Assembly (NCBI RefSeq): GCF_051953575.1
Contig: NZ_JBQCIP010000061.1
Span: 2,808-66,807, forward strand
DNA length: 64,000 nt
Source of the DNA: Microbacterium sp.
Lineage (GTDB): Bacteria; Actinomycetota; Actinomycetes; Actinomycetales; Microbacteriaceae
Direction: 5' to 3'
Positions within the stretch are counted from its first letter, which is position 1; the number at the start of each line of letters is the position of its first letter. This document shows, piece by piece, positions 36,168 to 51,697 of the stretch. The notes under the pieces were generated by a model, which worked only from the letters and a program-made list of their open reading frames with translations, was not told the DNA's origin and did no database searches. Made by a program: the position numbers and the translations under genes.

Positions 36168-36177
36168 GCCGAGCCGT

Positions 36178-36289
36178 TCAGAAGGTGTTGCCGCGTCCGT
36201 CCATCGACAGCTGCGGGATCGTCGTGCACACGAAGAGCGTCGCCTGCGGTGTGATCGCCTCGAACAGATGCGGCGCATCGGCCGGGAAA
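36178..36289 (-). pseudogene. 3'-terminal remnant (about 37 codons) of an XRE-cupin regulator gene, paralogous to 50056..50631
   Basis: 8 mismatches in about 111 nt against 50056-50167, counted by eye. No upstream part of the gene is present. Confidence 0.8.
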
Positions 36290-36597
36290 CGGTCTTGCCG
36301 AACGAGTTCGCGACCATCGCCAGGTCGTGCACCTGGGGCGTCACCGACATCCACGAGGCCAGCACCGTCGTGTCATCCCGGTGCAGCGCGTACTCCCGGC
36401 GACGGAACCCGAGGTTCTCACGCACCCAGCCCTCGGCCTGGTTGATCGTCTCCCTCGAGGTCTGCACGTTGAAGTGGTCGATCCGTCGCACACCGAGACC
36501 CCGGCGACGAGAGCTGTTGCTCGGCAGCTTCGAGGAGATCTCCTCCGGCGCCCCGGGCTTGTCGATGTCGTAGTAGAGCTCGAACGGATGCACGCTC
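36290..36597 (-). pseudogene. internal fragment (about 100 codons) of an extradiol dioxygenase gene, paralogous to 50702..51697
   Basis: About 10 mismatches in about 305 nt against 51028-51336, counted by eye. It encodes HPFELYYDIDKPGAPEE...LAMVANSFGKT only, with both ends missing. Confidence 0.85.
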
Positions 36598-38054: not shown

Positions 38055-39002
38055 TCAGAGGGCTCCGGTGTTCACAGGTTCGAGGTCGGGCTCGGGTTCG
38101 GGCTCGGGCTCGGCGGCAGGAGGGGCCGCCTCGACGGCGCGGTCGCGGGTGCGCCGCCGCCAGGTCTTCGCGATGAGGCCCTGCCGGGGGGCGAAGAACC
38201 AGGCGAGCAGGAACGCAGCGGTCAGGACGAGGACGATCGTGCCGCCGGTCGGGAAGTCCCACGACCAGGAGATGTAGAGGCCGACGAGGGCCGAGACGCC
38301 GCCGATGATCGGGGCGAGCAGCATCATGATCCCGAGCCGGTCGGTCAGCAGCCGGGCGGTCGCCGCCGGCGTGATGAGCAGCGCGAGCACGAGGATGTTG
38401 CCGATGGTCTGCACGCTGATGACGACGGCGAGGGTGACCAGGACGTAGAGCACGAGGTCGAGCCAGAACACCTTCACGCCCATCGCGCGCGCGGACTCCC
38501 GGTCGAGAGAGATGGTGACGAACTCCTTGTGCAGGGCGAAGATCACCGCGAGTACGAGCACCCCGGTCCCACCGACGACGTAGAGATCGGAGTCGGGGAT
38601 GCCTGTGATCGAGCCGAACAGGAATTGCTGCAAGGAGCCGGCGTAGCCGGGGGCTTGGGAGATGACGACGATGCCGAGGGCGAACGCGGCGACGAAAAAG
38701 ACCCCGATGATGGAGTCCTCCTTCAGCCTGCGGTTCTGCGAGAACACCGCGACGAGAACGGCGGTGAGGATGCCGGCGATGGTGCCGCCGATCACGAGGT
38801 TGCCGCCGACGACGAACGCGACCGCCAGACCGGGGAAGACGGCGTGGGCGACGGCATCGCCGATGAAGGCCATGCCGCGCAGCACGACGAAGGTGCCGAC
38901 GACGCCGCAGACGAGGGAGGACATGACCGCGACGGCGAGCGCCTTCGGGAGGAACGCGAGGTCGGGGTTGAGCAGGTCGGTGAGGAAGTCGATCGGGTTC
39001 AT
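38055..39002 (-). CDS. metal (cluster-9, ZnuB/MntC/TroD-type) ABC transporter permease, anchored-repeat type
   Basis: 315 aa with 8-9 TM helices and ABC-3 family features. 4-nt overlap with the ATPase gene. The C-terminal tail is acidic and Pro-rich (EPEPEPEPDLEP). Confidence 0.9.
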   Translation of the reverse strand: MNPIDFLTDLLNPDLAFLPKALAVAVMSSLVCGVVGTFVVLRGMAFIGDAVAHAVFPGLAVAFVVGGNLVIGGTIAGILTAVLVAVFSQNRRLKEDSIIGVFFVAAFALGIVVISQAPGYAGSLQQFLFGSITGIPDSDLYVVGGTGVLVLAVIFALHKEFVTISLDRESARAMGVKVFWLDLVLYVLVTLAVVISVQTIGNILVLALLITPAATARLLTDRLGIMMLLAPIIGGVSALVGLYISWSWDFPTGGTIVLVLTAAFLLAWFFAPRQGLIAKTWRRRTRDRAVEAAPPAAEPEPEPEPDLEPVNTGAL

Positions 39003-39772
39003 GCAGTCACGCGCCGTTCAGGAGATGTGGCAGCCAGGATGCGCAGCAGGGCGGAGTCGGCGCCGACGCCGAACGTGGTCATCCACAAGGCGGGGTCGGC
39101 GGCGAGCTGGGCGGGTGTGCCCGTGGCGATGATCGTGCGGTTCAGCAGCGCGATCCGGTCGCAGCCGTCCAGCGCCGACAGCAGGTCGTGGGTCGTCATC
39201 AGCACGGCGCGGCCCTCGCGGGCGAGGTCGGCGAACAGCACGGACAGTAGCTCCTGGGTGGGCATGTCCAGGCCGGTGAACGGCTCATCGAGTAGCAGCA
39301 CCGCGGGCTGCGCGGCGAGCGCGCGGGCGACGAGCACCCGCTGGCGCTGACCTCCGGAGAGCTGCCCCACGGGGCGATCCGCGAGGTCCGTCATGCGCAC
39401 CCGCTCCAGCGCATCCGCGACGGCCTCCCATTGAGCGACGCCAGGCCGGCGGAACATCCCGAGCCGCCCAGTCAGGCCGGTCATGACGACGTTCGCGACC
39501 GAGATTGGGAACTCCCAGGCGAACTCGTGCCGCTGCGGGACGTACCCGATCGGGGTGCGGCCGGGCTTGGAGACGCGGCCCTCGACCAGCACGCGGCCGG
39601 TACTCGGGGCGAGCACTCCGAGGACGGTGCGCAGCAGGGTCGTCTTCCCGGCTCCGTTCGGGCCGATCAGTCCGACGAGCTCGCCGCGGTCGACGGCCAT
39701 GTCCGTGCCGGTGAGGACGAGCCGGCCGCCGAGCTCGACGGACACGTTCTCGATCACGAGCGCCGCGGTCAT
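38999..39772 (-). CDS. metal ABC transporter ATP-binding protein (ZnuC/MntB-type), anchored-repeat type
   Basis: Walker A GPNGAGKTT, signature LSGGQRQRV, Walker B LLLDEP. Confidence 0.92.
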   Translation of the reverse strand: MTAALVIENVSVELGGRLVLTGTDMAVDRGELVGLIGPNGAGKTTLLRTVLGVLAPSTGRVLVEGRVSKPGRTPIGYVPQRHEFAWEFPISVANVVMTGLTGRLGMFRRPGVAQWEAVADALERVRMTDLADRPVGQLSGGQRQRVLVARALAAQPAVLLLDEPFTGLDMPTQELLSVLFADLAREGRAVLMTTHDLLSALDGCDRIALLNRTIIATGTPAQLAADPALWMTTFGVGADSALLRILAATSPERRVTA

Positions 39773-40815
39773 CGCGCGTCCTCGGATACCCGATCGAGGA
39801 CGAGGTCGCTGTCCTGGGTGCGGGCGGCGAGCGCGCGCCGCTTAGCGCGGTTGCCGCGCACGATCACGACGACCACGCCGGCGACCAGGGCGACCGCGAC
39901 CAGGGCGATCGCGCCGATCAGGATGGGCACGAGCGGGTCGCCGGCCGGCTCCGGGGCGGCGGTCGCCGGCTCGTCCAGCGTCACGTCCTCCGCATCCGCG
40001 CCCTCGCCGGGGGCCGGGGCGGCAGCGCCGTCCCAGCTCGCGGCGAGCGCGTCGGCCGGGGCGGTCGCGGTGCCGACGGCGAACCGGATGACTTGCGTGT
40101 CGGAGACGGTCGAGCCGTCCACGAGGTGAGCGGTCGCCTCGAGCTGAAGCAGGTAGATGCCAGGCTCGGTGAACACCCAGTTCGCGTGCGTGTGCGTGTT
40201 CACGTCGACCCATATCGGCTGCGCGTCGGGCAGGCGGGAGTCCCACAGCAGTTGCGGCTCCCCGAACGACCCCGACTGGAGGTAGGTCGTCACGACCCCC
40301 GGCCCCTGCGCGCCGGTGAGCGACAGGGTGACACCGCGGTCGATCGTCTGCATCACCTCCGGGTCTTGCGTGTTCCAGCCCAGCCACACGACCTCGGGGT
40401 TCTGCGTCTGCGGCACGACCCACACCGGCTCGCCGGGGTCCGCGCCGACGAAGGCGTAGGCCGGATCATCCGGGACGGACAGCTGCGCCTGGTCGAGGAC
40501 GTGGAAGACGGTCTCGTCGGGGTAGCGCCACACGCTCGCCGCGTTCGCGTCGGCCTTGGCGACGTCATCGTGGATGAGGAACGTCCACTCGCCGTCGACG
40601 AACTTCGGCCCCATGTCGACGTGCCCGGCATCCAACGTCCGCTCGCCGTGGACGACCGCGAGGTTCGCGTCGAGGGTCTGATCGAGGTTCGGGTCGTCGT
40701 CACCGTCCTCGGCGAACGCGGCGGTCGGCGCGGCCAGCAACATGAGGGCGAGGGCGGCGATCCCGGCGCGCATGGCGCCGGCGGCTCGCCTGCGGGGTCG
40801 GGTGAGGGTCGTCAT
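39769..40815 (-). CDS. ABC-transporter-associated surface repeat protein (one full module, C-terminal TM anchor)
   Basis: Signal peptide, then AGHVDMGPKF...VPQTQNPEVVWLGWNT...THTHANWVFTEPGIYLLQLEA...IRFAVG, then a TM helix LVPILIGAIALVAVALVAGVVVVIV and a basic tail. Expected TIGR03769/TIGR03773-type family. Confidence 0.85.
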   Translation of the reverse strand: MTTLTRPRRRAAGAMRAGIAALALMLLAAPTAAFAEDGDDDPNLDQTLDANLAVVHGERTLDAGHVDMGPKFVDGEWTFLIHDDVAKADANAASVWRYPDETVFHVLDQAQLSVPDDPAYAFVGADPGEPVWVVPQTQNPEVVWLGWNTQDPEVMQTIDRGVTLSLTGAQGPGVVTTYLQSGSFGEPQLLWDSRLPDAQPIWVDVNTHTHANWVFTEPGIYLLQLEATAHLVDGSTVSDTQVIRFAVGTATAPADALAASWDGAAAPAPGEGADAEDVTLDEPATAAPEPAGDPLVPILIGAIALVAVALVAGVVVVIVRGNRAKRRALAARTQDSDLVLDRVSEDAR

Positions 40816-40881: not shown

Positions 40882-42450
40882 TCATCCGCTGAGACAATCG
40901 CGGAGGGAGTCGGCGTTGAACCGCATCATGTCGACGTAGCTCGGCACCCGGTCGTCCAGCGCATCGCCATAGATCAGGCACACCTGGACGTGCTGCTCGG
41001 CGGCGAGCTCGGTGAGCACGTTCGCGCGGGCGATGTGGTTCGGTTCGAGGAACACCGCCGGGATGCGCAGCGTCCGCAGCGTCTCCGACAGCTTCCGGCG
41101 ATCCGCCAGCGATGGCTCCGCCGCTGGGTTCGGGGTCACGAATCCGGCGATCTGCATGTCGTAGGCGTGGGCGAGGTAGCCGAAGGCGTCGTGCGTCGTG
41201 ATGAGGTAGCGGTTCGCCTCGGGGATCGTCGCGATCTGCTCGCGCACGTAGTCGTCCACGTCCTCCAGCTCGGCGAGGTAGGCGGCGGCGTTCGCCGTGT
41301 AGTCGCGGGCACCTTCGGGGTCGGCGCTGATCAGGGTGTCGCGGATGAGCAGCACGTAGGCCATGCCGTTGCGGACGTCCTGCCACAGGTGCGGGTCGAT
41401 CTCGCCGTGGACGTGCTTGCCGAGCACGGCCTGCGGCAGCTGGTAGACCTGCGTGCCCGCGCGGCCGAGGAAGGAGAACTGCGACCCGGCTGGGATCTCC
41501 GACAGCGCCTTGGACGGCACGTCGATCACGACCTCCTCCGGGGCGTAGGAGACCTGCGTGTGCTCCCCGCCGCCCTCCGGGTCGTACCGGACCTCCAGCG
41601 CCCCGTCCTCGAGGTTGGCCGTCAGGTCCGCGTGCCCCTGGTTCAGCACCACCGCGTCCGGCATCCCCGCGTCGGCGGGGTTGACGCCGACTGCGAAGGT
41701 GAACGTCGCCTGCCCGAGCTCTTGCGGGCGCGAGGTGTCGTCGACCTGCACGCGGGCGTCGAGCGTGACGGTGTAGATGCCGGGCTCGGTGAATGTCCAC
41801 GACAGGTGCGTGTGCGCGTCGGCCGGCAGGGACATGGTGTCGTCCTTGTAGCCGTTGCTCGCGTCGAACCCGTTGGACGAGTCGAAGTACACGTCCGTGT
41901 CGCCGAACGTGCCCGTCAGGTACGCGAACACGTCGCCCGGCCCGGTGACCTCGGTGGCCGACAGCAGCACCTCGGAGGTGCGGGTCGCGCCGTAGCGGGC
42001 GGCGCCGTCGCCGTGCGCACGCAGACCGAGCCACACCGTGTCGAGGTTGACGTTCTCCACCAGCGGGATGATCTCCGCGGCGTACTTCACCGCTTCCTCT
42101 GCGAGGGAGACGTTCACCGCGCCGGCCTGCAGGTTGGAGTCGAGAGTCTTGATGACGTTGTGCTCCTCCAGCAGCGCATAGTTGGAGAAAGCGACGTCCG
42201 CGTACACGACGTTGCGGGCATCCCGCAGCGTCGGCTCGTAGATGTGCGGGTCCGCGCCGTCCGGCACGATTGAGGCGACGTCCACCCGGTCGCCGCCGAC
42301 GTTCTGCACGAGATCGCGCAGCAGCCCTGTCGTCGTGATGACCTGCAGCCGGTCGGTCTCGGCCGACAGCAGCGGCTTGCTCGCGCATCCGGTCAGCGTC
42401 AGCACCGTCGCGGCGAGCGCGGCCGTGGCGGCGAACATGCGGCGGCTCAT
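40882..42450 (-). CDS. anchored-repeat-type cluster-9 metal ABC substrate-binding lipoprotein with about 210-aa repeat-module insertion
   Basis: Lipobox LTLTGC. TroA/ZnuA ligand motifs DPHIYEP (aa 67-73) and DPHLWQD (aa 352-358) are separated by about 285 aa rather than about 70. TTHDAFGYL is present. The insertion carries HTHLSWTFTEPGIYTV. Confidence 0.9.
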   Translation of the reverse strand: MSRRMFAATAALAATVLTLTGCASKPLLSAETDRLQVITTTGLLRDLVQNVGGDRVDVASIVPDGADPHIYEPTLRDARNVVYADVAFSNYALLEEHNVIKTLDSNLQAGAVNVSLAEEAVKYAAEIIPLVENVNLDTVWLGLRAHGDGAARYGATRTSEVLLSATEVTGPGDVFAYLTGTFGDTDVYFDSSNGFDASNGYKDDTMSLPADAHTHLSWTFTEPGIYTVTLDARVQVDDTSRPQELGQATFTFAVGVNPADAGMPDAVVLNQGHADLTANLEDGALEVRYDPEGGGEHTQVSYAPEEVVIDVPSKALSEIPAGSQFSFLGRAGTQVYQLPQAVLGKHVHGEIDPHLWQDVRNGMAYVLLIRDTLISADPEGARDYTANAAAYLAELEDVDDYVREQIATIPEANRYLITTHDAFGYLAHAYDMQIAGFVTPNPAAEPSLADRRKLSETLRTLRIPAVFLEPNHIARANVLTELAAEQHVQVCLIYGDALDDRVPSYVDMMRFNADSLRDCLSG

Positions 42451-42937
42451 GCGACGGCCTCCGCCTGCCGGACGATGCCGATCCGTTCGTCTGGGTCGAC
42501 CAAGTGCAGGCCGGCGTCACGCAGCCCCGGCTCCAGCAGGGTCGCCAGGCGCGCGAACGTCTCCTGCCGCCCGGTTGCGGTGAGGTGGCCGAGCCTGTTC
42601 GCACAGACGAACCCGGCGACCGGCCCGGTCAGCTCGTCGAGGATGTCCGGGGCGGCGCCGGCGAGCACGCTCACCTGGTCGATCAGTTCGGGGTCGTCGG
42701 CGACACGGGCCAGCAGCACTGCCCGCATCGTCAGCGACGGCTCGATCGCGACCACCTGGGCGCCGTGGACCGAGCGAGCAGCCGTGTGCCGATCCCGGTG
42801 CCGGCGCCGACGTCGAGGACGGTCGCGTTCGGGTCGAGGTCGGCGAAGGCCGATGCCAGGGCGGGCCGCAGCCCACCCCAGACATCGGTCATGAACAGGT
42901 CATGGAACTCGCCCATGCCCTCGTATGCGTCGATCAC
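42447..42937 (-). pseudogene. class I SAM-dependent methyltransferase split by a 1-nt frameshift
   Basis: ORFs 42731..42970 (…VLDVGAGTGIGTRLLA) and 42447..42755 (VVAIEPSLTMRAVLL…) are the two halves of one MTase. The frames join as LLAR/VHGAQVVAIEPS if one G is added near 42770. GTGA overlap with the giant gene's stop and ATGA overlap with the SBP start. Confidence 0.7.
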
Positions 42938-45900
42938 GCCGGAAGGCCGCCCCTCCGTCGCCGCCACCACAGCACCCCCGTACCCGCAGCGCCCCCGATC
43001 AGGAGCGCGCCGAGGATCGACAGCAGCAGCGGGACCGGGTTGCCGGTCGCGAGCGCGGTGAACGGGTCAGTGATCCCGCCGCCGGGAACCGGGGTGCCCT
43101 GGCCGGGCAGCAGGTCACGGGCCGCAGCCGCCGCAGCCGCCGCGGCCTGATCGGCGGACAGCCTCGTTCCGTCATCGTCGGTCAGCACCGCGTTGGAAAT
43201 GGTGCCGCAGCCCGATCCCGAGCCCGCCGCCGACGCCGGGTCCACATTCCCGACCACGATCGTCAGGGTCTCCGTGTCGGAGGAGACCTGCCCGTTCGCG
43301 AGGGTCGCGGTCTGCGTCGTGCTGATCCGGTAGACGCCCTCGGCGGAGAACGCCCAGTTCGCGTGGGCGTGAACGCCGAGCGGGATGCTGTAGCTGCCGC
43401 CGTTGTTGAACACCATCGACTGCACGCCGCCGAACGAGCCGGACAGGTAGACGCGCAGCGCGCCGGGGCCGTCGATCGAGTTGATCGTCCAGGTGACAGG
43501 CCCGCGGGTGTTGGCGGCGTTCAGTGCCTCGGTCGACCAGCCCAGCCAGATCAGGTCCGGGTTCTGCGTCTGCGGCACCTGCCACACGCTCGACCCGGCC
43601 GCCCCCACCTGCCCATAGCCGGACGGGAGGGTGACACGGCTGGACGGCTTGAGCCACAAGATCGTACCGCCCGGCTCCCGGTAGACCTTCGCGCCGGACG
43701 TGTCGTCACCGATCAGCGATTCAAGCTTGCCGCCCACGATGCGGGAGCCGTAGTCGATGTGACCGGACGACAAAATCGTCGCCCCTGCGACGCACTGTGT
43801 CGCAGACACCTGGACCGCTCCCGGGGCGTCGCCGCCCGGGACAGATCCCGGAGGCGATGGTGTGGTAGGCGCGCGGACGATGGACAGGGAGTCCCAGCCG
43901 AGGAGGTCTCCCCCGGCGGTCTTCACCACCAGTCGATGACCACCCGTCGTCGCACCCGCCGGCAAGCGGACCTGGACCGCGCCCGACTGGCCGACCTGCG
44001 CCCAACCGAGCCAGTGCGGGGTGGAGTGCAACCACACCGACACCCAGGAGCCAGCACGATCCCGGTCGAGCTGTGCAGTCAGCAGCTGACCCGGGATGAA
44101 TCCGTTCTCCCCGCCCAGAACGCTCACCGTGCCTGCGGTCGCGTCCGTGAGCTCCTCATCCGGGACGGGGGTGCGGTCGTCATCGGCAGGGTGCCCCGGG
44201 GCGGCGGTGAAGCAGGCGGCGGGGTCGACCTTGCGCACGTCGACGGCGCCGACCGCAACGGCAAGAGTGAAGCTATCGCTCACTGGTTTGCCGGAGCTGA
44301 GGGTCGTTGCGCGCTCGAAGGCGAGACAATAGACGCCTTCGGCGCTGAACGCCCAAGTCCCATGGGCGTGGGTGTGCTTGGGAATTGCGGATGTGTCGGC
44401 GGCGGTGATGCCGTCCCGGGTGTTGAACATCACGCTGGGTTCGCCGAACACCCCTGTCTGGAACAGGGCGAATTCGCCCGGCCCGCTGCTGTCGACGAGC
44501 GACCAGCGGAATGCGTCTCGCGTGGCGTCATCCGCGATCGCCTCCGTGGACCAGCCCGGCCAAAGCAGCGCGTCGTCCTGGGTTTCGGGGAGGATCCACG
44601 TGGCAGAACCGGCGGCCCCGAGGAACGCATACTCGGGGAGATCGGGAACGCTCGTCCGCGCGGCCGGCTTCGCCTGCAGCACGGTCTTCGCCGGGTCGCG
44701 CCAGACAGGCTCGCTACTTTCGGTGGTGTCCTTGATGCGCGTGCCGAAAACGTCGCCGTTCAGAACGGATGCGACGTCGACGTGACCGAGGCCGAGGATC
44801 GTCGCCCCGGAAGCGGTCTTCGTACCGTTCGGCACATCCCATTCCACGGGCTCCGGCTCCCCAGGGCCTTCCCCTCCGGGATCCGTGCCCTCCCCTCCTT
44901 CCGCGCAAGGAGTGACGGTGGCGGGATCCTCGACCCCGACCGCGTAGGTGATCGTCTTCGTGGCTGCGGAGACCGTGCCATCGGCGAGTGTCGCGGACCA
45001 GGTCAACGGAACACAGTAGATCCCGGGCAGGGAGAACGACGGCTGATTGGCGAAGATGAACTGCGGCCACAGCGTGACACTGCGCGACTCGCCGGCGCGG
45101 GTGCCGAACGATCGGTTCTTGTAGTAGTCGAAGCTGACTGTTCCCGGCCCGTCGACCTCCCCCACACGGATGGTTGCGTCTCCCCGGATGTCGCCCCGCG
45201 GGAGATACTCACCGGAGTGAGTGAACTCCACGCCCTGCCAGGAGGGGATGCGCCAGCCGTCGCCCTGGTCGATGAAGCCGCCTATCACGACGGACTCCGG
45301 GTCGTGCCAGCTCGTCGCCCACGGGTGGGTAACGACTTTGGTCGCGACATCGAGCCCGTCCGGGCTCAACACCGGAGCGAACTGGACGCGGTCGCCCGCG
45401 GAGGGCACCAGTCCCTCGTCGCTGAGACCATCGAGATCGATAGGGGCGAGCTCGGAAACAGGACCATCAGGATGGGTCCGTGCGCAGGGCTGCACGGTGT
45501 GCAGGTCGACCGAGTCGCCGATCGCGATCGTGAGCTGGTCACGCACGACCTCGTCCGTCCCGGTCGCGGCGTCGCGGGCGCGGACCTCGAAGTTCAGGCA
45601 ATACACGCCCTCCTTCGTGAACGCCCATTCCAGATGCTGGTGACTCGTCGGACCGATGAACGATGCCGGCAGCGCGGTCGAACTCACATTCCTGTCGGGC
45701 ATGGCGAAGGTGCCCCCTTCGGGACCGGTGTAGCCGAGAAGAGTCCAGGTCGGCTTCCCCTCGGTCAACGCCTGTGGGAGGCTTTCATGCGTCAGACCCG
45801 GCCAGAGCGTCGAGGTCATGAACGCGTTGCTCGCAGAGAACCCGTAGTACGGCGTACCGAGAGGCCCTATCGCGCTGTAGTCTGCTCCGCTCCCAGTGGC

Positions 45901-48162
45901 CGTGTCCGGGACAGTGAAGTCGATGTTCGGTCCGCGGCCGACCCACACCGCATCTGCCACAGTGGGGAATGCACCGGTGTCGTGGACGTCGCCGGTGTGC
46001 AGCTCCAGCTCCCCGTCGACGAGCATGGGTCCGATGTCGAGGTGTCCTTGGTGGAACCAGGTGACGGTCGGATCCAGGTCATCGTAGATGTCCTCATCAC
46101 CGGGATCGGTCGGCCCGTCGCCGCCATGGGACTGGGCGCAGGGCTGGACAGTCGTGGCATCGATGCCGATGGCGAAGGTGAGCGTCGAGTAACCGATCGC
46201 AGGAGCCTCCGCCCCCACGAAGGTGCCTCGAGACTCCACGGTCAGGCAGTAGCGTCCGGGTGCGGTGAACGCCAGCCCCACGATGTTGAATGGGTCAGCG
46301 AACGGGTAGTAGCCGTCTTCGACCCCAGTGGCCCATACTGACCCAGCGCTTCCCTCCTCGCGCGAGTCCCATTGCGCCACGACGCTCGAATCGGTGATCC
46401 AATCGTTGTTCCCCGATGCATAGCTTGCGACGTAGCCTCCTGCCGGGGTCTCGGTGGCCACCAATCGCAGCGAGTACGCGCCGTCCACCAGCTCTTCGGC
46501 GGGGGTGGTGTCGGCCTGCGGCAGCAGAGTCAGGGGAATCCCTGGGTCGGAGAAGGGAGCGTAGGCGGGGCTGCCGGCTGTGCGCCACAGCCGTGTGCCG
46601 GGTGCGGCGATCTGCCCCCAGAGCTTCTGGTTCGTGGCGTCCGTGCCCTCCGCTGGCCAGGCGGCATCCTGTCGCGGCAGCGAGAACACCGTCCTCTGGG
46701 GCGTGAGGGTGGTGGTGCGACCGCCGACCACCCGGTTCAGATCCATCCGCAGGGTGCCGTCATCGGCCGGTACGGGCGAGAGGTGCACGTCGCCGGCTCC
46801 GATCACCGTGACCCCCTGCTCGACGGTCGGGGTGGGCGACGGGTCGTACGACCCGGTCGCAGTGGGCTGGGCGCAGGGGGTCACAGTGGCCGGATCCACA
46901 CCCACCGCGAACGTGAGCGTCGCGCGGTTGTTCGCGATGAGACCCGTTTCCAGGTCGAGCATTTCGCTGTCCAGCGTGAGGCAATAGATTCCGGCAGCGG
47001 TGAACGCGAACCCAGATGCCTCGCTCTCGACCGGGCCCTCGGCGTCCGGCGTCAACGACTGCCGGGGCGACACCGCCCCGATGGCGCCAGAATGCCACCG
47101 ACCAGCCGGATATCCATCATCACCGCGGAAGGTGGTGAACGCACCGCCCTCCGGCGACACCGCCTCGGCGACGCTCATCATCAGCTCGAAGCCGTTTTCC
47201 GCAGACACCCCGTGCGCGTCAGTGCGCAGCAGCAGGTCGTTGCCTGCCGAGGAGTCCGCGGCTGCCTCAGTGCGCCACACATCGCTGTGAGACGGGACCA
47301 GCAGATTCCAGTTCTTCCAGCCCTGCTCCGCGGGCTCGAACCCGGTGCCGGGCCAGGACTCGACGTTCGGCAGCGAGAACACCGTCTCGCCGGGATCGAG
47401 GACCGTGCCGCTCTCATCGATCAGTCGCAGACGCAGATTGCCGTCCTCCCAGCGGTTCGAGATGTCGACAGTGCCCTCGCTCAGCACGTGAACGGGCGGC
47501 ACACCCGCCGGCGCCGCGGCCAGAGCCTGGTCAGGGTGCTCGGTAGCCGGCTCGGAGACGGCTTCCCGATCGTCGGAATCCCGCCCCAGGTCGGGAGAGT
47601 CCTCTGCAGATTCTTCTGCCGTGGTCACGTGGAACCGGTAGGTCGTGTCCGCCGCCGTGGAGGTGGCCTCGGGCTGATCTGGCAGGGCGTAGCGCGTCTC
47701 GGCACCGACCACGAGCTCGTAGTCGCCGGGTACGGTGAAGGCCCAGTCGAGCATCGCCCCCTCCGCGTCGACGTCGAGCGTCTGGGCCTGTCCCTCTGCC
47801 GTCCCCCAGACGCGCGCTCCGCCCGCAGGTGTGGCGTGAACCGCACCGCCCTGCGGGGTCATGACCGAACGCAGCTCGAGTCGCACCCCGCTCAGCGATG
47901 CCCCGGTGGGCAGCCCGGCGGCATCCACCACGACACGCGTGCTGGCTGTGCCTTCGGTCACCGCGAACACAGACTCCACCGAGCCCCGACCATCGGCCGT
48001 GGCGGCCACCAGGGCAGTGCCTTCCGCCGCAACGGCGACGCCCGGCAGCACGGCGCCGTCGAGCAGGATCGGGGTGTCAGCGACAGCGGGCTGTGCCATC
48101 CCCCCGACGAGGGCGACGACCGCGACCAGCGCGAGGAGCAGCTTCAAGGGAGTCTTCTTCAT
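42934..48162 (-). CDS. 1742-aa cell-surface protein with about 7 tandem anchored-repeat modules and a C-terminal sorting-signal-like tail
   Basis: Signal peptide MKKTPLKLLLALVAVVALVGGMAQPAVA. Repeated GHxD...PQTQ..WLGWST...HxHxxWAFxxxGxYC...TxxxAxG units. The C-terminus is TALATGNPVPLLLSILGALLIGGAAGTGVLWWRRRRGG. Confidence 0.9.
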   Translation of the reverse strand: MKKTPLKLLLALVAVVALVGGMAQPAVADTPILLDGAVLPGVAVAAEGTALVAATADGRGSVESVFAVTEGTASTRVVVDAAGLPTGASLSGVRLELRSVMTPQGGAVHATPAGGARVWGTAEGQAQTLDVDAEGAMLDWAFTVPGDYELVVGAETRYALPDQPEATSTAADTTYRFHVTTAEESAEDSPDLGRDSDDREAVSEPATEHPDQALAAAPAGVPPVHVLSEGTVDISNRWEDGNLRLRLIDESGTVLDPGETVFSLPNVESWPGTGFEPAEQGWKNWNLLVPSHSDVWRTEAAADSSAGNDLLLRTDAHGVSAENGFELMMSVAEAVSPEGGAFTTFRGDDGYPAGRWHSGAIGAVSPRQSLTPDAEGPVESEASGFAFTAAGIYCLTLDSEMLDLETGLIANNRATLTFAVGVDPATVTPCAQPTATGSYDPSPTPTVEQGVTVIGAGDVHLSPVPADDGTLRMDLNRVVGGRTTTLTPQRTVFSLPRQDAAWPAEGTDATNQKLWGQIAAPGTRLWRTAGSPAYAPFSDPGIPLTLLPQADTTPAEELVDGAYSLRLVATETPAGGYVASYASGNNDWITDSSVVAQWDSREEGSAGSVWATGVEDGYYPFADPFNIVGLAFTAPGRYCLTVESRGTFVGAEAPAIGYSTLTFAIGIDATTVQPCAQSHGGDGPTDPGDEDIYDDLDPTVTWFHQGHLDIGPMLVDGELELHTGDVHDTGAFPTVADAVWVGRGPNIDFTVPDTATGSGADYSAIGPLGTPYYGFSASNAFMTSTLWPGLTHESLPQALTEGKPTWTLLGYTGPEGGTFAMPDRNVSSTALPASFIGPTSHQHLEWAFTKEGVYCLNFEVRARDAATGTDEVVRDQLTIAIGDSVDLHTVQPCARTHPDGPVSELAPIDLDGLSDEGLVPSAGDRVQFAPVLSPDGLDVATKVVTHPWATSWHDPESVVIGGFIDQGDGWRIPSWQGVEFTHSGEYLPRGDIRGDATIRVGEVDGPGTVSFDYYKNRSFGTRAGESRSVTLWPQFIFANQPSFSLPGIYCVPLTWSATLADGTVSAATKTITYAVGVEDPATVTPCAEGGEGTDPGGEGPGEPEPVEWDVPNGTKTASGATILGLGHVDVASVLNGDVFGTRIKDTTESSEPVWRDPAKTVLQAKPAARTSVPDLPEYAFLGAAGSATWILPETQDDALLWPGWSTEAIADDATRDAFRWSLVDSSGPGEFALFQTGVFGEPSVMFNTRDGITAADTSAIPKHTHAHGTWAFSAEGVYCLAFERATTLSSGKPVSDSFTLAVAVGAVDVRKVDPAACFTAAPGHPADDDRTPVPDEELTDATAGTVSVLGGENGFIPGQLLTAQLDRDRAGSWVSVWLHSTPHWLGWAQVGQSGAVQVRLPAGATTGGHRLVVKTAGGDLLGWDSLSIVRAPTTPSPPGSVPGGDAPGAVQVSATQCVAGATILSSGHIDYGSRIVGGKLESLIGDDTSGAKVYREPGGTILWLKPSSRVTLPSGYGQVGAAGSSVWQVPQTQNPDLIWLGWSTEALNAANTRGPVTWTINSIDGPGALRVYLSGSFGGVQSMVFNNGGSYSIPLGVHAHANWAFSAEGVYRISTTQTATLANGQVSSDTETLTIVVGNVDPASAAGSGSGCGTISNAVLTDDDGTRLSADQAAAAAAAAARDLLPGQGTPVPGGGITDPFTALATGNPVPLLLSILGALLIGGAAGTGVLWWRRRRGGLPA

Positions 48163-48268: not shown

Positions 48269-48904
48269 TTAGAACGTGAAGAGGATGTTGTTCGTCTTGC
48301 CGCCGGGGCCCAGACCCGAGCCCGTCACCTTGACGCCGATCTGCGCCTGCGACGCCGAGGTCGTGAACGTCCACGTGAAGTGCTCGTGGAAGTCCGCCGT
48401 GGCGCCCGCCGGGAGCACGAACGACTCGGTGTTGTCGCCGACGGAAGTGTCGAAGTAGACCGTCGAGGGGTTGGTCGGATCGGTGATCTTCACGTTGGTC
48501 CCCGCGGGAACTCTCGTGAGCTGGACCGTGTAGGTGCGGTTCACGGTGGGGGAAGCGAAGGCATCGTCGATGCGGATGCCGCCACCACCGACCGGGGTGA
48601 TCGAGGTGGCGTCGTCACCGTCGACGACCTTGCCCGAGCCGACGGCGAACCAGCCCGCCGGGGCGTCGACGTCTTTGTAGCTGCCCGCGCCCGAGTGATC
48701 GAAGTTGACGACTTCGAGCGGGGTGTTACTGACGGCGATGAGGTCCCATTCACCGGTCTGCGCCCCGGTGACGACGGTCGCGGCGTTCGCGGCGACCGGC
48801 GCACCGATGCTGAGGGCGACCGCCGCGATTCCAGCGACGACCGATCCGAGAAGGGTCTTGTTCCTGCGGACTGCGCTCTGGCGGTCATGGGTGATGGTGG
48901 ACAT
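48269..48904 (-). CDS. small secreted protein with a single degenerate half-module (FHEHFTWTF)
   Basis: ORF trimmed to MSTITHDRQ..., preceded by AAGGAGA. Signal peptide ends ...APVAANA. The C-terminal LPAGATADFHEHFTWTFTTSASQAQIGVKV resembles the HxHxxWxF core of the repeat family. Confidence 0.8.
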   Translation of the reverse strand: MSTITHDRQSAVRRNKTLLGSVVAGIAAVALSIGAPVAANAATVVTGAQTGEWDLIAVSNTPLEVVNFDHSGAGSYKDVDAPAGWFAVGSGKVVDGDDATSITPVGGGGIRIDDAFASPTVNRTYTVQLTRVPAGTNVKITDPTNPSTVYFDTSVGDNTESFVLPAGATADFHEHFTWTFTTSASQAQIGVKVTGSGLGPGGKTNNILFTF

Positions 48905-49225
48905 GTTCGTTCTCCTTGAGTTGATTGCGTGGATGGATGGCTCGCACGCTCCAGCAGGCGCAGACACGGTCTACGCAAGGGGGGCTCAGACTGCCCTGCT
49001 ACCGGAGCGCGCCCAGCATTCGGTCCGAGTAGATGAACTGCGTCCGCACAAATCCGACGTGCTGGCATCGGACCGGAACCCATATCGCACGTCCGACGCG
49101 TCTCGGCTGGAGGTTCCAGGCCGCGCGCAACAGGACGTCAGGGCCGCAGCCGCAGCGAGGTGCTTCGCCGCGGGCAAGGTGACCCCGGCCATGCATGCGC
49201 CGTGCGTGCATCCTCAGACCTGCGA

Positions 49226-49258
49226 CGCTGTCGCGATTCGAATCGCGAGGCGACAGCG
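49226..49258. promoter_or_regulatory. long hairpin containing a perfect 18-bp palindrome TCGCGATTCGAATCGCGA
   Basis: The palindrome spans 49231-49248. The outer arms cgctg / cgacagcg extend the stem with a 2-nt bulge. Confidence 0.5.
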
Positions 49259-49360
49259 TGGTGACGCGAGCGAGGATTCGTCGGCGACTCCTGACCCGGC
49301 CCATCGCCTACCCCGTTTCTGCCCGCAACCCACGCACGACGTGAACATCGCTATCCATAA

Positions 49361-49377
49361 ATGAGAATGGTTATCAT
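49361..49377. promoter_or_regulatory. Fur-family (Zur-like) box candidate
   Basis: ATGAGAATGGTTATCAT has 6 of 8 palindromic pairs. The inner 15-mer matches TGAAAATGATTTTCA at 12 of 15 positions. It sits in a local AT-rich island (ccataaatgagaatggttatcattacc). Confidence 0.5.
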
Positions 49378-49739
49378 TACCACCGTCCGTATCTTGGCGG
49401 CTCGGTGGACCGTCTGTCAAATTGATGACGACTGGAGATGAGTCCGCGACACTCGAATCAGAGGGAGTGGACCGAGCCGGATGGGCAGGTGGGGCGAGGC
49501 TGCCTTCTGCCTGAGATTCAGAAAGCTGACGCGCGGCGGCTGAGGTGAGGCTGGTTCTTGGCCGTGCGCCCCTCGCCACACCGGTCGACGTTCAGGTGCG
49601 TGCCCCTCTCGTGCGTTGCTCCGCGCCGACGCTCCGTTGGCGATCACTCGACGTCGCCGCCTCGGATCCTGCTCATGGGTGCGCGTGCTCACGCACCCGG
49701 TCAGCCGGCCTTCGGTCGGCCGACTGAGCCGGCATGACG

Positions 49740-49790: not shown

Positions 49791-49946
49791 TCAGTGCTCG
49801 TCGTAGTGGTCGGCGTGGGCGGCGTGCTTGTGCCCGTCATGCACGTAGTCGAAGTGATCGCCGTGCTCGACGGCCTCGTGGCCGCAATCGGCGCCGTGCG
49901 CGTGCTCCGCCAGGCTGTGCTCGGCATGGGTGTCGGTGGTGGTCAT
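49791..49946 (-). CDS. 51-aa histidine-rich small protein (candidate metal-binding protein or metallochaperone)
   Basis: MTTTDTHAEHSLAEHAHGADCGHEAVEHGDHFDYVHDGHKHAAHADHYDEH has 14 His, 1 Cys and 13 Asp+Glu in 51 residues. GGAAGGAACAGACAGC precedes the ATG. Confidence 0.65.
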   Translation of the reverse strand: MTTTDTHAEHSLAEHAHGADCGHEAVEHGDHFDYVHDGHKHAAHADHYDEH

Positions 49947-49992: not shown

Positions 49993-50055
49993 CGGGCTCT
50001 AGGACGTGCGCGACGGCGTCGGCGATGACGTGCGACACGTGCACGCCGAAGCGGC

Positions 50056-50631
50056 TCAGAAGGTGCTGCTCTGCCCGTCCATCGACAGCTGCGGGATCGT
50101 CGTGCACACGAAGACCGTCGCCTGAGGTGTGATCGCCTCGAACAGATGCGGCGCATCCGCCGGGAAGCGCAGAAAGTCTCCCGCCTGCGCCATCACCGGG
50201 GCCGAGGCCGGGCCGATGCGCACCCGGCCCTCGAGCACGAGGCAGTGTCGCAGGGCTCCCCGGCCCTGCGGCTTGCGCGTCGATGGGCCGCGGTTGGCCT
50301 CGAGGCGCAGCACGCTGTTCGTGACGTATCCCGAGCCGAACGCGTGGTCGAGCTGACGCACCTGCAGCGTGCCGTCATCCCGCCACGGGACGGCGTCGCG
50401 CCATTGGACGAGCACCTCGTTGCCCAACTCGCTCACGAGCGCGCGGATGCTGACGCCGAGCGCAGAGGCGAGCCGCTCGATCGTGTCGACGGTGGGGTTC
50501 CCTTCGCCGGACTCGATGCTCGCGACGGTCTGCTTCGACAGTCCCGCCCGCCGTCCAATCTCGGCGAGCGACAGGCGGCGGTCCTCGCGGAAGCGGCGGA
50601 GGTTCCGCGCGACCATGTCGTTCGCATCCAT
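50056..50631 (-). CDS. XRE-family HTH + cupin-domain transcriptional regulator
   Basis: ORF trimmed to MDANDMVARNLRRFREDRRLSLAEIGRRAGLSKQTVASIESGEGNPTVDTIERLASAL, with a C-terminal cupin segment (GDFLRFPADAPHLFEA). Confidence 0.88.
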   Translation of the reverse strand: MDANDMVARNLRRFREDRRLSLAEIGRRAGLSKQTVASIESGEGNPTVDTIERLASALGVSIRALVSELGNEVLVQWRDAVPWRDDGTLQVRQLDHAFGSGYVTNSVLRLEANRGPSTRKPQGRGALRHCLVLEGRVRIGPASAPVMAQAGDFLRFPADAPHLFEAITPQATVFVCTTIPQLSMDGQSSTF

Positions 50632-50701
50632 GGCTCCGGCTCCTTCGCGTGGCGGCATGCTCCCCCCATCATCGCCGATGCGGCTCGCCCGGCCGATCGT
50701 C

Positions 50702-51697
50702 TCAGAGGACGGCGGAGGGCGTCGTCCCGAGGCTGCGCGCGTCGCCGCCGAACACGAAGGGGTCGCCGTACCACGTGAGTCCATCGGGGAAGGCCTCACG
50801 CTCCCACTTGATCGGCTCCCAGTCCGGCTCGAAGATCAGATACCCGCCCGCGTAGATCTCCACCCGATGGCCCGAGCCCGGGTCGAGCACGTAGAGGTAC
50901 ATCGCCTGCCCGATCCCGTGCTTGCCGGGGCCGAGGTCGAAGGTGACGTCGTAGTCGCGGAGCACGTCGGCCGCCGTCAGCACGTCCGAGAGATTCTCGA
51001 GGTTGAAGGCGACGTGGTGCAGCTGGGCGGTCTTGCCGAACGAGTTCGCGACCATCGCCAGGTCGTGCACCTGGGGCGTCACCGACATCCACGAGGCCAG
51101 CACCGTCGTGTCATCCCGGTGCAGCGCGTACTCGCGGCGGCGGAAACCTAGGTTCTCACGCACCCAGCCCTCGGCCTGGTTGATCGTCTCCCTCGAGGTC
51201 TGCACGTTGAAGTGGTCGATCCGTCGGACACCGAGACCCCGGCGGCGGGAGCTGTTGCTCGGCAGCTTCGACGAGATCTCCTCCGGCGCGCCGGGCTTGT
51301 CGATGTCGTAGTAGAGCTCGAACGGATGCCCGCTTCCGGGAACCAGGAACCGCACCGCCGTGCCGCGGCCCACCTCCGCGCCTGCGGGCACCTCGACGGT
51401 CTCGATCTCCTGGCGCTCGAACTCGGCCGCGAACAGCTCGACATCCTGCGGACGCCGGACGCGGAAGCTGTAGGAGTTCACCACGCTCTCGGGCTGCTCC
51501 GTGAGCACGAGCGAGTGGTGCGCGAGTTCCTGGTACCCCCGCAGGTAGGCGGTGCTCCCCTCGCGGTGCACGATCTCCATTCCGAGGAGGTCCCCGAAGA
51601 AGTGCAGCGAGGTCGCGAGGTCCTTCGTGCCCAGGTTGATCGCCCCGCAGTGAGCGATCTGCGGACCGGGGTCGTACCCGTCGGCGAATGCGGTCAT
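50702..51697 (-). CDS. extradiol ring-cleavage dioxygenase (catechol 2,3-dioxygenase / BphC-type, two-domain VOC)
   Basis: 331 aa. Starts MTAFADGYDPGPQIAHCGAINLGTKDLATSLHFF.... Contains RIDHFNV, LHHVAFN and the GHRVEIY vicinal-oxygen-chelate metal ligand contexts. ATGA overlap with the ligase gene. Confidence 0.9.
   Translation of the reverse strand: MTAFADGYDPGPQIAHCGAINLGTKDLATSLHFFGDLLGMEIVHREGSTAYLRGYQELAHHSLVLTEQPESVVNSYSFRVRRPQDVELFAAEFERQEIETVEVPAGAEVGRGTAVRFLVPGSGHPFELYYDIDKPGAPEEISSKLPSNSSRRRGLGVRRIDHFNVQTSRETINQAEGWVRENLGFRRREYALHRDDTTVLASWMSVTPQVHDLAMVANSFGKTAQLHHVAFNLENLSDVLTAADVLRDYDVTFDLGPGKHGIGQAMYLYVLDPGSGHRVEIYAGGYLIFEPDWEPIKWEREAFPDGLTWYGDPFVFGGDARSLGTTPSAVL

Follow-up and report, generated by a model that had tools for sequence, protein, structure and literature searches.

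Why should a zinc-uptake lipoprotein carry, in the middle of its own metal-binding fold, a copy of a module that its operon partners carry as a free-standing unit, and why should the conserved motifs of that copy stand in the opposite order? The question is raised by a znuA-like gene encoding a 522-residue substrate-binding protein (SBP; 40882-42450, minus strand) in a 64,000-nucleotide stretch of a Microbacterium sp. genome (assembly GCF_051953575.1, contig NZ_JBQCIP010000061.1, positions 2,808 to 66,807), which we refer to as the window. The original prediction for this DNA had noticed a large insert between the first two metal ligands of the SBP and had described it as a circularly permuted relative of modules found elsewhere in the cluster, interpreting it as a metal-capture domain that replaces the histidine-rich loop of ZnuA proteins. 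The analysis presented here confirmed the observation and partly supported the interpretation. The reading that we regard as probable is of a zinc SBP that holds a permuted module in the loop position of ZnuA and AztC as a built-in zinc station, the permuted copy having originated from a tandem array.

Profile matches identify the protein as the substrate-binding lipoprotein of an actinobacterial "anchored-repeat" ZnuAECB-type metal importer. It has a lipobox (LTGC, Cys22) and is a member of TIGR03772, which matched residues 36-521 at profile positions 1-486 in a single collinear stretch (740.4 bits; cutoff 350.45); the TIGRFAM description of this family also mentions the insert. The match of the PF01297 (ZnuA) core is split into two stretches with the insert between them. 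The closest named relative of the SBP is from M. marinilacus (83% identity), its top NCBIfam match outside its own family is AztC, and its top solved relatives by sequence score are the manganese or iron binders MntA, PsaA and MtsA. In the AlphaFold2 model, the core was similar by Foldseek to MtsA, AztC, PsaA and TroA (TM-scores of 0.77-0.81, normalised to the target).

When residues 133-340 were deleted, the SBP could be aligned over its full length and without a break to MntA, PsaA, MtsA and the AztC loop-deletion mutant 5kzj, and in this alignment the primary-site ligands could be assigned against PsaA: H69 corresponds to H67, H354 to H139, H420 to E205 (a histidine in AztC) and D496 to D280. 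Residues 1-132 (42055-42450, minus strand) comprise the signal and lipobox and the N-lobe up to the insertion point, with ligand His69 at 42244-42246, and are collinear with PsaA and MntA once the insert is removed. The C-lobe segment (40963-41193, minus strand) holds ligand His420 (41191-41193, in TTHDAF) and ligand Asp496 (40963-40965, in YGDAL), which align with PsaA E205 and D280 and with VAHNAF and YSDAL of AztC. The ligand set is conserved across the SBP family, and the T-x-H-D motif of the third ligand was found in about 146 of 149 SBPs; by alignment, the primary site is a 3-His plus Asp set (H69, H354, H420, D496) of the AztC/TroA type. His69 and His354, in the motifs DPH(69)IYEP and DPH(354)LWQD, are indeed 285 residues apart as originally reported, and the spacing of about 70 residues that had been quoted for ordinary cluster A-I SBPs agrees with the 77 residues that remain when 133-340 are deleted.

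The insert itself (41431-42054, minus strand) corresponds to residues 133-340, and the module copy in it spans 133-341. A hidden Markov model (HMM) built from four free-standing modules of the window matched it in two pieces. Residues 133-255 (half b; 41686-42054, minus strand), which read WLG...GPG...HTH (213-215, 41806-41814)...FAVG, correspond to the C-terminal half of the free-standing module (HMM positions 77-185, 57 bits), and were also matched by TIGR03769 (45.4 bits at residues 212-254; cutoff 30.9); the predicted local distance difference test (pLDDT) score of this half is 85-98. Residues 268-341 (half a; 41428-41649, minus strand), which read GHAD (272-275, 41626-41637)...FSFLG...LPQA, correspond to the N-terminal half (HMM positions 3-77, 24 bits) and have the same order of secondary structure as residues 64-134 of a 348-residue anchored protein encoded in the same cluster, hereafter the ZnuE-like protein. 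Between the two HMM matches lies the linker VNPADAGMPDAV (residues 256-267; 41650-41685, minus strand), which leads from the old C-terminus of the module to its old N-terminus, and similar short b-to-a linkers occur in natural tandem arrays.

Both pieces break at model position 77, with 77-185 coming first and 3-77 second, and a two-piece permuted match of this kind lies far beyond what would be expected by chance. When the insert was re-pasted in the canonical order it gave a single full-length match of 85.8 bits, and when it was doubled head to tail one full-length match was found inside the doubled sequence (82.9 bits). The choice_anch_M profile NF038134 likewise matched the SBP (106.9 bits; cutoff 55) in two stretches, one of which aligns residues 132-254 with profile positions 74-184. 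Translation confirmed the coordinates of all the parts given here, the sequence strings first quoted, and the order of motifs that had been reported for the two proteins: WLG140, HTH213-215, FAVG, GHAD272-275 and LPQ338-340 in the SBP, against GHVD64-67, VPQ134-136, WLG144 and HTH208-210 in the 348-residue protein. The collinear order of NF038134, with HxD first, is reversed in the SBP, where HxH stands at 213 and GHxD at 272, 57 residues apart; in free-standing modules the median distance from GHxD to HxH is 137 residues. The re-permuted insert is 31% identical to the module of the ZnuE-like protein over 201 columns, and the AlphaFold2 secondary structure of the insert (pLDDT 85-98) equals that of the ZnuE-like module (pLDDT >90) in a circularly shifted order. 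The proposed homology to the free-standing modules is thus borne out by the module HMM and NF038134, and the proposed permutation by the complementary pieces and the re-permuted match; the insert is evidently one complete, cleanly circularly permuted copy of the HxD/HxH module. Cutting the module at the internal loop between a and b would create two adjacent termini that fit a loop, with the old termini bridged by the 12-residue linker.

No solved relative of the module came up when the PDB was searched by sequence with the ZnuE-like protein, and a Foldseek comparison of the modelled module with PDB structures had no significant result (best E-value 9e-3, TM-scores of at most 0.43, generic Ig-like sandwiches). 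The Foldseek matches to YcnI, a copper chaperone and lytic polysaccharide monooxygenases were weak, and we do not consider these proteins to be meaningful relatives.

The permuted register is a property of the family. Among 120 close homologues of the SBP (at least 69% identity), 116 have the order b then a; in three of the other four, half b was detected alone, and the fourth is also b then a, with a b match that starts from model position 47 and falls outside the classification cutoff. A HMMER search with the insert alone against 1.84 billion 50%-cluster representatives returned 1425 proteins, and architectures were determined for the best 150. These include 52 SBP-type proteins, whose inserts share 40-67% identity with the query where the two match, and all 52 read "N b a C", or appear as "N b C" when half a escaped the small HMM; no unpermuted "N a b C" insert was found among the best 150. 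Wherever an insert shows both motifs (45 spacings), HxHxxW precedes GHxD, at a distance of 45-84 residues (median 58). Some fusion proteins, of the form "N b a C a b", combine a canonical module with the permuted insert in a single chain. H213, H215, W218, G272, H273 and D275 do not vary among the 71 SBPs of alignment A1, and both GHxD and HxH are kept in all 117 detected inserts, compared to 275 of 344 free-standing modules. H213, H215, H273 and D275 are the putative zinc ligands of the insert module.

The second ligand, His354 (41389-41391), follows 13 residues after the junction, the D-loop of AztC (residues 117-133, before ligand H138) occupies the same stretch, and the histidine-rich loop of E. 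coli ZnuA aligns at the C-terminal junction of the insert. The insert occupies the loop that is histidine-rich in ZnuA and forms the D-loop in AztC, and its placement between the two ligands, at the position of the ZnuA loop, stands as first described. The module may replace the histidine-rich loop functionally, as had been proposed, but not the whole of it, as a short K-H-V-H-G (H346, H348; 41404-41418, minus strand) stays between the insert and His354. This element is invariant in alignment A1 and lines up with the DHHHG in the loop of E. coli ZnuA, an H-x-H at this place was found in 151 of 152 insert-bearing SBPs, and it is possible that K-H-V-H-G is the remnant of a histidine-rich loop. 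A flexible loop with many His, Asp and Glu residues is absent near the metal site of the SBP, where there is a folded domain (pLDDT 85-98) and the short KHVHG remains. The ZnuA proteins of E. coli and Synechocystis have their histidine-rich loop at the same chain position, directly upstream of the second ligand histidine, but that loop is of low complexity and flexible, whereas the Microbacterium SBP has an ordered, permuted domain; by sequence, its core resembles the branch of AztC, TroA and PsaA more than it does ZnuA.

AztC of Paracoccus denitrificans, like the SBP described here, is a cluster A-I zinc SBP with a 3His+Asp site, and an element just before its second histidine ligand receives zinc from AztD, the product of a gene in the same operon (PMC7463823). 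This D-loop, which docks into the chaperone and without which transfer fails (PMC7463823), is the best functional analogy for the insert. The two differ in that the AztC element is a 17-residue disordered, histidine-containing loop and its partner a beta-propeller, whereas the SBP here has a folded domain of about 209 residues that is homologous to its partners. AdcA of Streptococcus pneumoniae, an SBP fused to a ZinT-like domain, and the Pht proteins, which supply AdcAII, share with the present system the concept of a zinc SBP with, or served by, an extra zinc-binding domain (PMC7858048), and the Pht surface proteins have repeated histidine motifs, as do the wall proteins here. The extra domain of AdcA has an unrelated fold and is an unpermuted C-terminal fusion, in contrast to the loop insertion in this SBP.

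A likely source for the permuted copy can be seen among the free-standing modules. Tight tandem arrays of the module exist, with a period of about 187 residues, and the insert is collinear with them over about 180 residues across the b-to-a junction (32-37% identity, with a similar linker length). The HxH-to-GHxD spacing is 48-53 residues in several arrays, as it is in SBPs, and the top free-standing matches to the insert by summed score are tight tandem arrays (P0241, P0242, P0245, P0249 and P0250). It is therefore plausible, as had been proposed, that one repeat-length was taken from such an array out of register, by the classical route of permutation by duplication; this would be the most likely origin of the permuted copy, with which the comparisons are consistent. 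At least one of the tight-array clusters (P0242) is annotated as Verrucomicrobiota, and in the internal repeats of P0241 GELD replaces GHxD. Fused proteins were also observed, among them SBPs with a C-terminal canonical module and a 1948-residue Alloscardovia protein in which wall modules are fused to an SBP.

Much of the surrounding system is known from Corynebacterium diphtheriae. The orthologous SBP DIP0438 (ZnuA, formerly TroA) and its neighbours are zinc-repressed through Zur (Peng and Schmitt, 2019; PMC6711530), and the locus has since been named znuAECB, with znuF-445 (Peng, Lyman and Schmitt, 2025; PMC12445094). In that work growth in low zinc depended on ZnuE, zinc-dependent thermal shifts were seen for ZnuE, ZnuF and ZnuG, in vivo function called for the motif histidines, HxD and HxH came together in one pocket in AlphaFold models of ZnuE and ZnuG, and the C. 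diphtheriae ZnuA was noted to have the motif "in reverse order" (PMC12445094). The genetic evidence for zinc-dependent uptake by this type of importer comes from that locus. The Microbacterium locus resembles that of C. diphtheriae in NCBIfam family name, in gene order (SBP, ZnuE, ATPase, permease), in wall proteins with repeated HxD/HxH modules, in the three-histidine primary site and, putatively, in Zur control, and HxH precedes HxD in both SBPs, by 45 residues in C. diphtheriae and 57 here. It differs in that the wall protein is much larger (1742 residues) and encoded upstream, with an S-adenosylmethionine (SAM)-dependent methyltransferase gene between it and the SBP gene. As a member of a curated family that is partly characterised by experiment, the locus is in itself ordinary. 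The text of Peng, Lyman and Schmitt (2025) does not contain "permut", "loop" or "His-rich", and neither permutation of the whole domain nor its position at the histidine-rich loop or D-loop is described there (PMC12445094); our search for literature that joins circular permutation, domain insertion and ZnuA found none. The family and the reversed motif are thus already described, and what is new is the exact description: a clean permutation, in a fixed register, at a defined loop position and next to a conserved H-x-H.

These features suggest how the insert might work. It would form a built-in zinc-binding station beside the mouth of the primary site, where it could capture Zn2+ or be supplied with it by the homologous modules in ZnuE and the wall protein; the zinc might then pass to the primary site, perhaps by way of the retained H346-x-H348, for delivery to the permease. 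Such a role in zinc capture or relay is plausible. More tentative, and on balance doubtful, is a fully homotypic relay, in which zinc would move from like domain to like domain through the wall proteins, ZnuE and the SBP insert, the last step being intramolecular, to the transport site, with the tandem-array precursor of the insert surviving in the same gene cluster.

Several observations weigh against the built-in zinc station and its tandem-array origin. With zinc, the 3xA mutants of the C. diphtheriae ZnuE and ZnuG continue to shift, the authors call the binding role of the motif unresolved, and deletion of znuA in that species has only a modest effect on growth (PMC12445094). The zinc shifts were measured on ZnuE, ZnuF and ZnuG, and zinc binding by any SBP insert is putative. 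No duplication intermediate, such as "N a b a b C", was seen among the best 150 representatives with their 52 SBP-type proteins, although one "N b b C" was found. The only Zur box in the window is some 7 kb upstream of the SBP gene, whose co-transcription from there is presumed. Confidence in the structural model is low (pLDDT 37-55) for SBP residues 75-136 (42043-42228), the N-lobe helices that flank the insertion point; for a core family so well known, a shallow alignment or a real remodelling of the lobe around the insert could explain this. Half b also occurs without a in many wall proteins ("b b b a b" is common in other genomes, and the 1742-residue protein has b-only modules), and a and b might therefore be semi-independent subdomains; b-only runs being common, half b may be an autonomous Ig-like unit.

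This last point leads to the view that two separately folding subdomains have simply exchanged places, without true circular permutation and without special structural meaning. The b-only modules speak for it, yet the two break points complement each other exactly, a always stands next to b in SBPs, the published AlphaFold models of ZnuE and ZnuG place HxD (from a) and HxH (from b) in one pocket, and in our model both halves are predicted with high confidence as one compact beta unit; we consider a mere exchange of subdomains very improbable. Slightly less probable still is that the physiological substrate is manganese or iron, which the insert would then serve. The sequence scores of MntA, PsaA and MtsA favour that possibility, as does the binding of operator DNA by C. 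glutamicum Zur with manganese as well in vitro, but the third ligand is a histidine (TTHDAF) and not the glutamate of the manganese-type PsaA, giving the 3His+Asp site of the AztC/TroA type. AztC is moreover the top match outside the family, a Zur box lies upstream, and in C. diphtheriae the orthologous locus is controlled by zinc and Zur and sustains growth when zinc is low.

The alternatives that keep both the permutation and zinc are less easily set aside. The insert could be mainly a docking domain, which pairs with ZnuE or wall modules or with the permease and positions the lipoprotein while holding no zinc in transit. Every extracytoplasmic partner of the operon has the same fold, the AztC loop at this position is the element that docks into AztD and that transfer requires, and the greater importance of ZnuE than of ZnuA for C. 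diphtheriae growth suggests that the partners cooperate. We nevertheless regard a mainly docking role as unlikely; the three histidines and the aspartate are invariant in inserts, more strictly than in free-standing modules, which is hard to reconcile with docking alone. Improbable to a further degree is a second, lower-affinity zinc site that serves surface buffering, storage or sensing off the import path. A regulatory role has been proposed for the Synechocystis ZnuA loop, and buffering would resemble one such proposal. For ZnuF and ZnuG, storage or sequestration has been raised, and their over-expression limits growth in low zinc (PMC12445094). Against buffering, the point of insertion does not change from the loop on the mouth side, and between the insert and the ligand histidine there is a conserved H-x-H; both features suggest coupling to the primary site, and every family member keeps the insert. 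A zinc station coupled to the primary site is the reading that we favour over these.

The genes around the SBP gene encode the remainder of the importer. The ZnuE-like protein (39769-40815, minus strand; 348 residues) has a signal peptide, one canonical a-to-b module (residues 58-250), a C-terminal transmembrane helix (helix 295-345 modelled by AlphaFold2) and a basic tail; no sortase motif was seen in its C-terminal sequence. NF038134 matched it in one stretch, at profile positions 2-184 (201.6 bits; cutoff 55), TIGR03773 scored just under its cutoff (174.4 bits; cutoff 190.3), and the closest named relative is from M. azadirachtae (95% identity). It is followed by genes for an ATP-binding cassette (ABC) ATPase (38999-39772, minus strand; TIGR03771, 349 bits, cutoff 269) and an ABC permease (38055-39002, minus strand; TIGR03770, 472 bits, cutoff 297). 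Upstream of the SBP gene, at 42934-48162 (minus strand), is the gene for the 1742-residue surface (wall) protein, which matched TIGR03773 at 526 bits (above cutoff) and NF038134 in four stretches. A map with the half-module HMMs placed three intact a-b modules with both motifs at residues 700-884, 1120-1308 and 1461-1641; residues 117-1077 (in the N-terminal 60%) hold degenerate modules, several of them b-only and without GHxD and HxH.

The synteny of this zinc cluster is also found in M. marinilacus. The class I SAM-methyltransferase gene (42447-42930, minus strand) lies between the wall-protein and SBP genes, and its stop codon overlaps the SBP start (ATGA). In M. marinilacus an intact gene of 250 residues is found in the same place; here a frameshift near 42760 leaves a product about 90 residues shorter, and the split gene is either a pseudogene or a sequencing error. 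Farther upstream, between a small open reading frame (ORF) and the wall-protein gene, a 232-residue secreted protein is encoded (48269-48967, minus strand), which has a 219-residue counterpart in M. marinilacus. Its C-terminus, HEHFTWTF, resembles the HxHxxW(x)F of half b, with a weak match to the half-b HMM only.

A Zur-box-like 21-bp palindrome, TAATGATAACCATTCTCATTT (10-1-10; 49359-49379, minus strand), is situated some 55 bp upstream of the ORF that opens the cluster on the minus strand. It matches the C. glutamicum cg0042 box, verified by electrophoretic mobility shift assay, at 18 of 21 bases, it is the sole such site in the window, and none of 100 shuffles reached it. The 101-residue ORF that heads the cluster (49304-48999, minus strand), about 55 bp after the box (region 48999-49379), is kept in M. 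marinilacus (50% identity over 68 residues; motifs HGRGHL, PRCGCG and FIYSDRML), where a related box, GGATGATAATCAGTATCAATA, precedes the orthologous small ORF. It may be an unannotated first gene of the zinc cluster, or it may merely be conserved leader DNA; an Rfam scan from the Zur box to the gene for the 232-residue protein found nothing, and that space holds the conserved small ORF. Just upstream of the Zur box is a histidine-rich small ORF, MTTTDTHAEHSLAEHAHGADCGHEAVEHGDHFDYVHDGHKHAAHADHYDEH (49791-49943, minus strand), with 14 histidines in 51 residues. Pfam and NCBIfam gave no match to the 232-residue protein, the 101-residue ORF or the histidine-rich ORF.

Direct repeats flank the whole zinc cluster (36172-36589 against 50050-50169 and 51028-51327), at a spacing of about 14.7 kb, and consist of 300 nucleotides at 97% identity and an adjoining 120 nucleotides at 91%. 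The right copy falls within a catechol-2,3-dioxygenase-like reading frame that appears to be complete, and the left one is a fragment. This arrangement suggests that the zinc cluster was inserted or rearranged by recombination. A gene for an XRE-family helix-turn-helix and cupin regulator (50056-50799, minus strand), which adjoins the histidine-rich ORF, also lies in the region bounded by the repeats.

For the family, the description given here turns a vague "reverse motif" into specific hypotheses: an intramolecular zinc relay, a homotypic hand-off from ZnuE and an origin in a tandem array. If these are true, the SBP would be a rare natural case of permutation by duplication in which the tandem-array precursor is still present in the same gene cluster. 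The system bears on how Corynebacterium, Cutibacterium, Bifidobacteriaceae and other actinobacteria acquire zinc.

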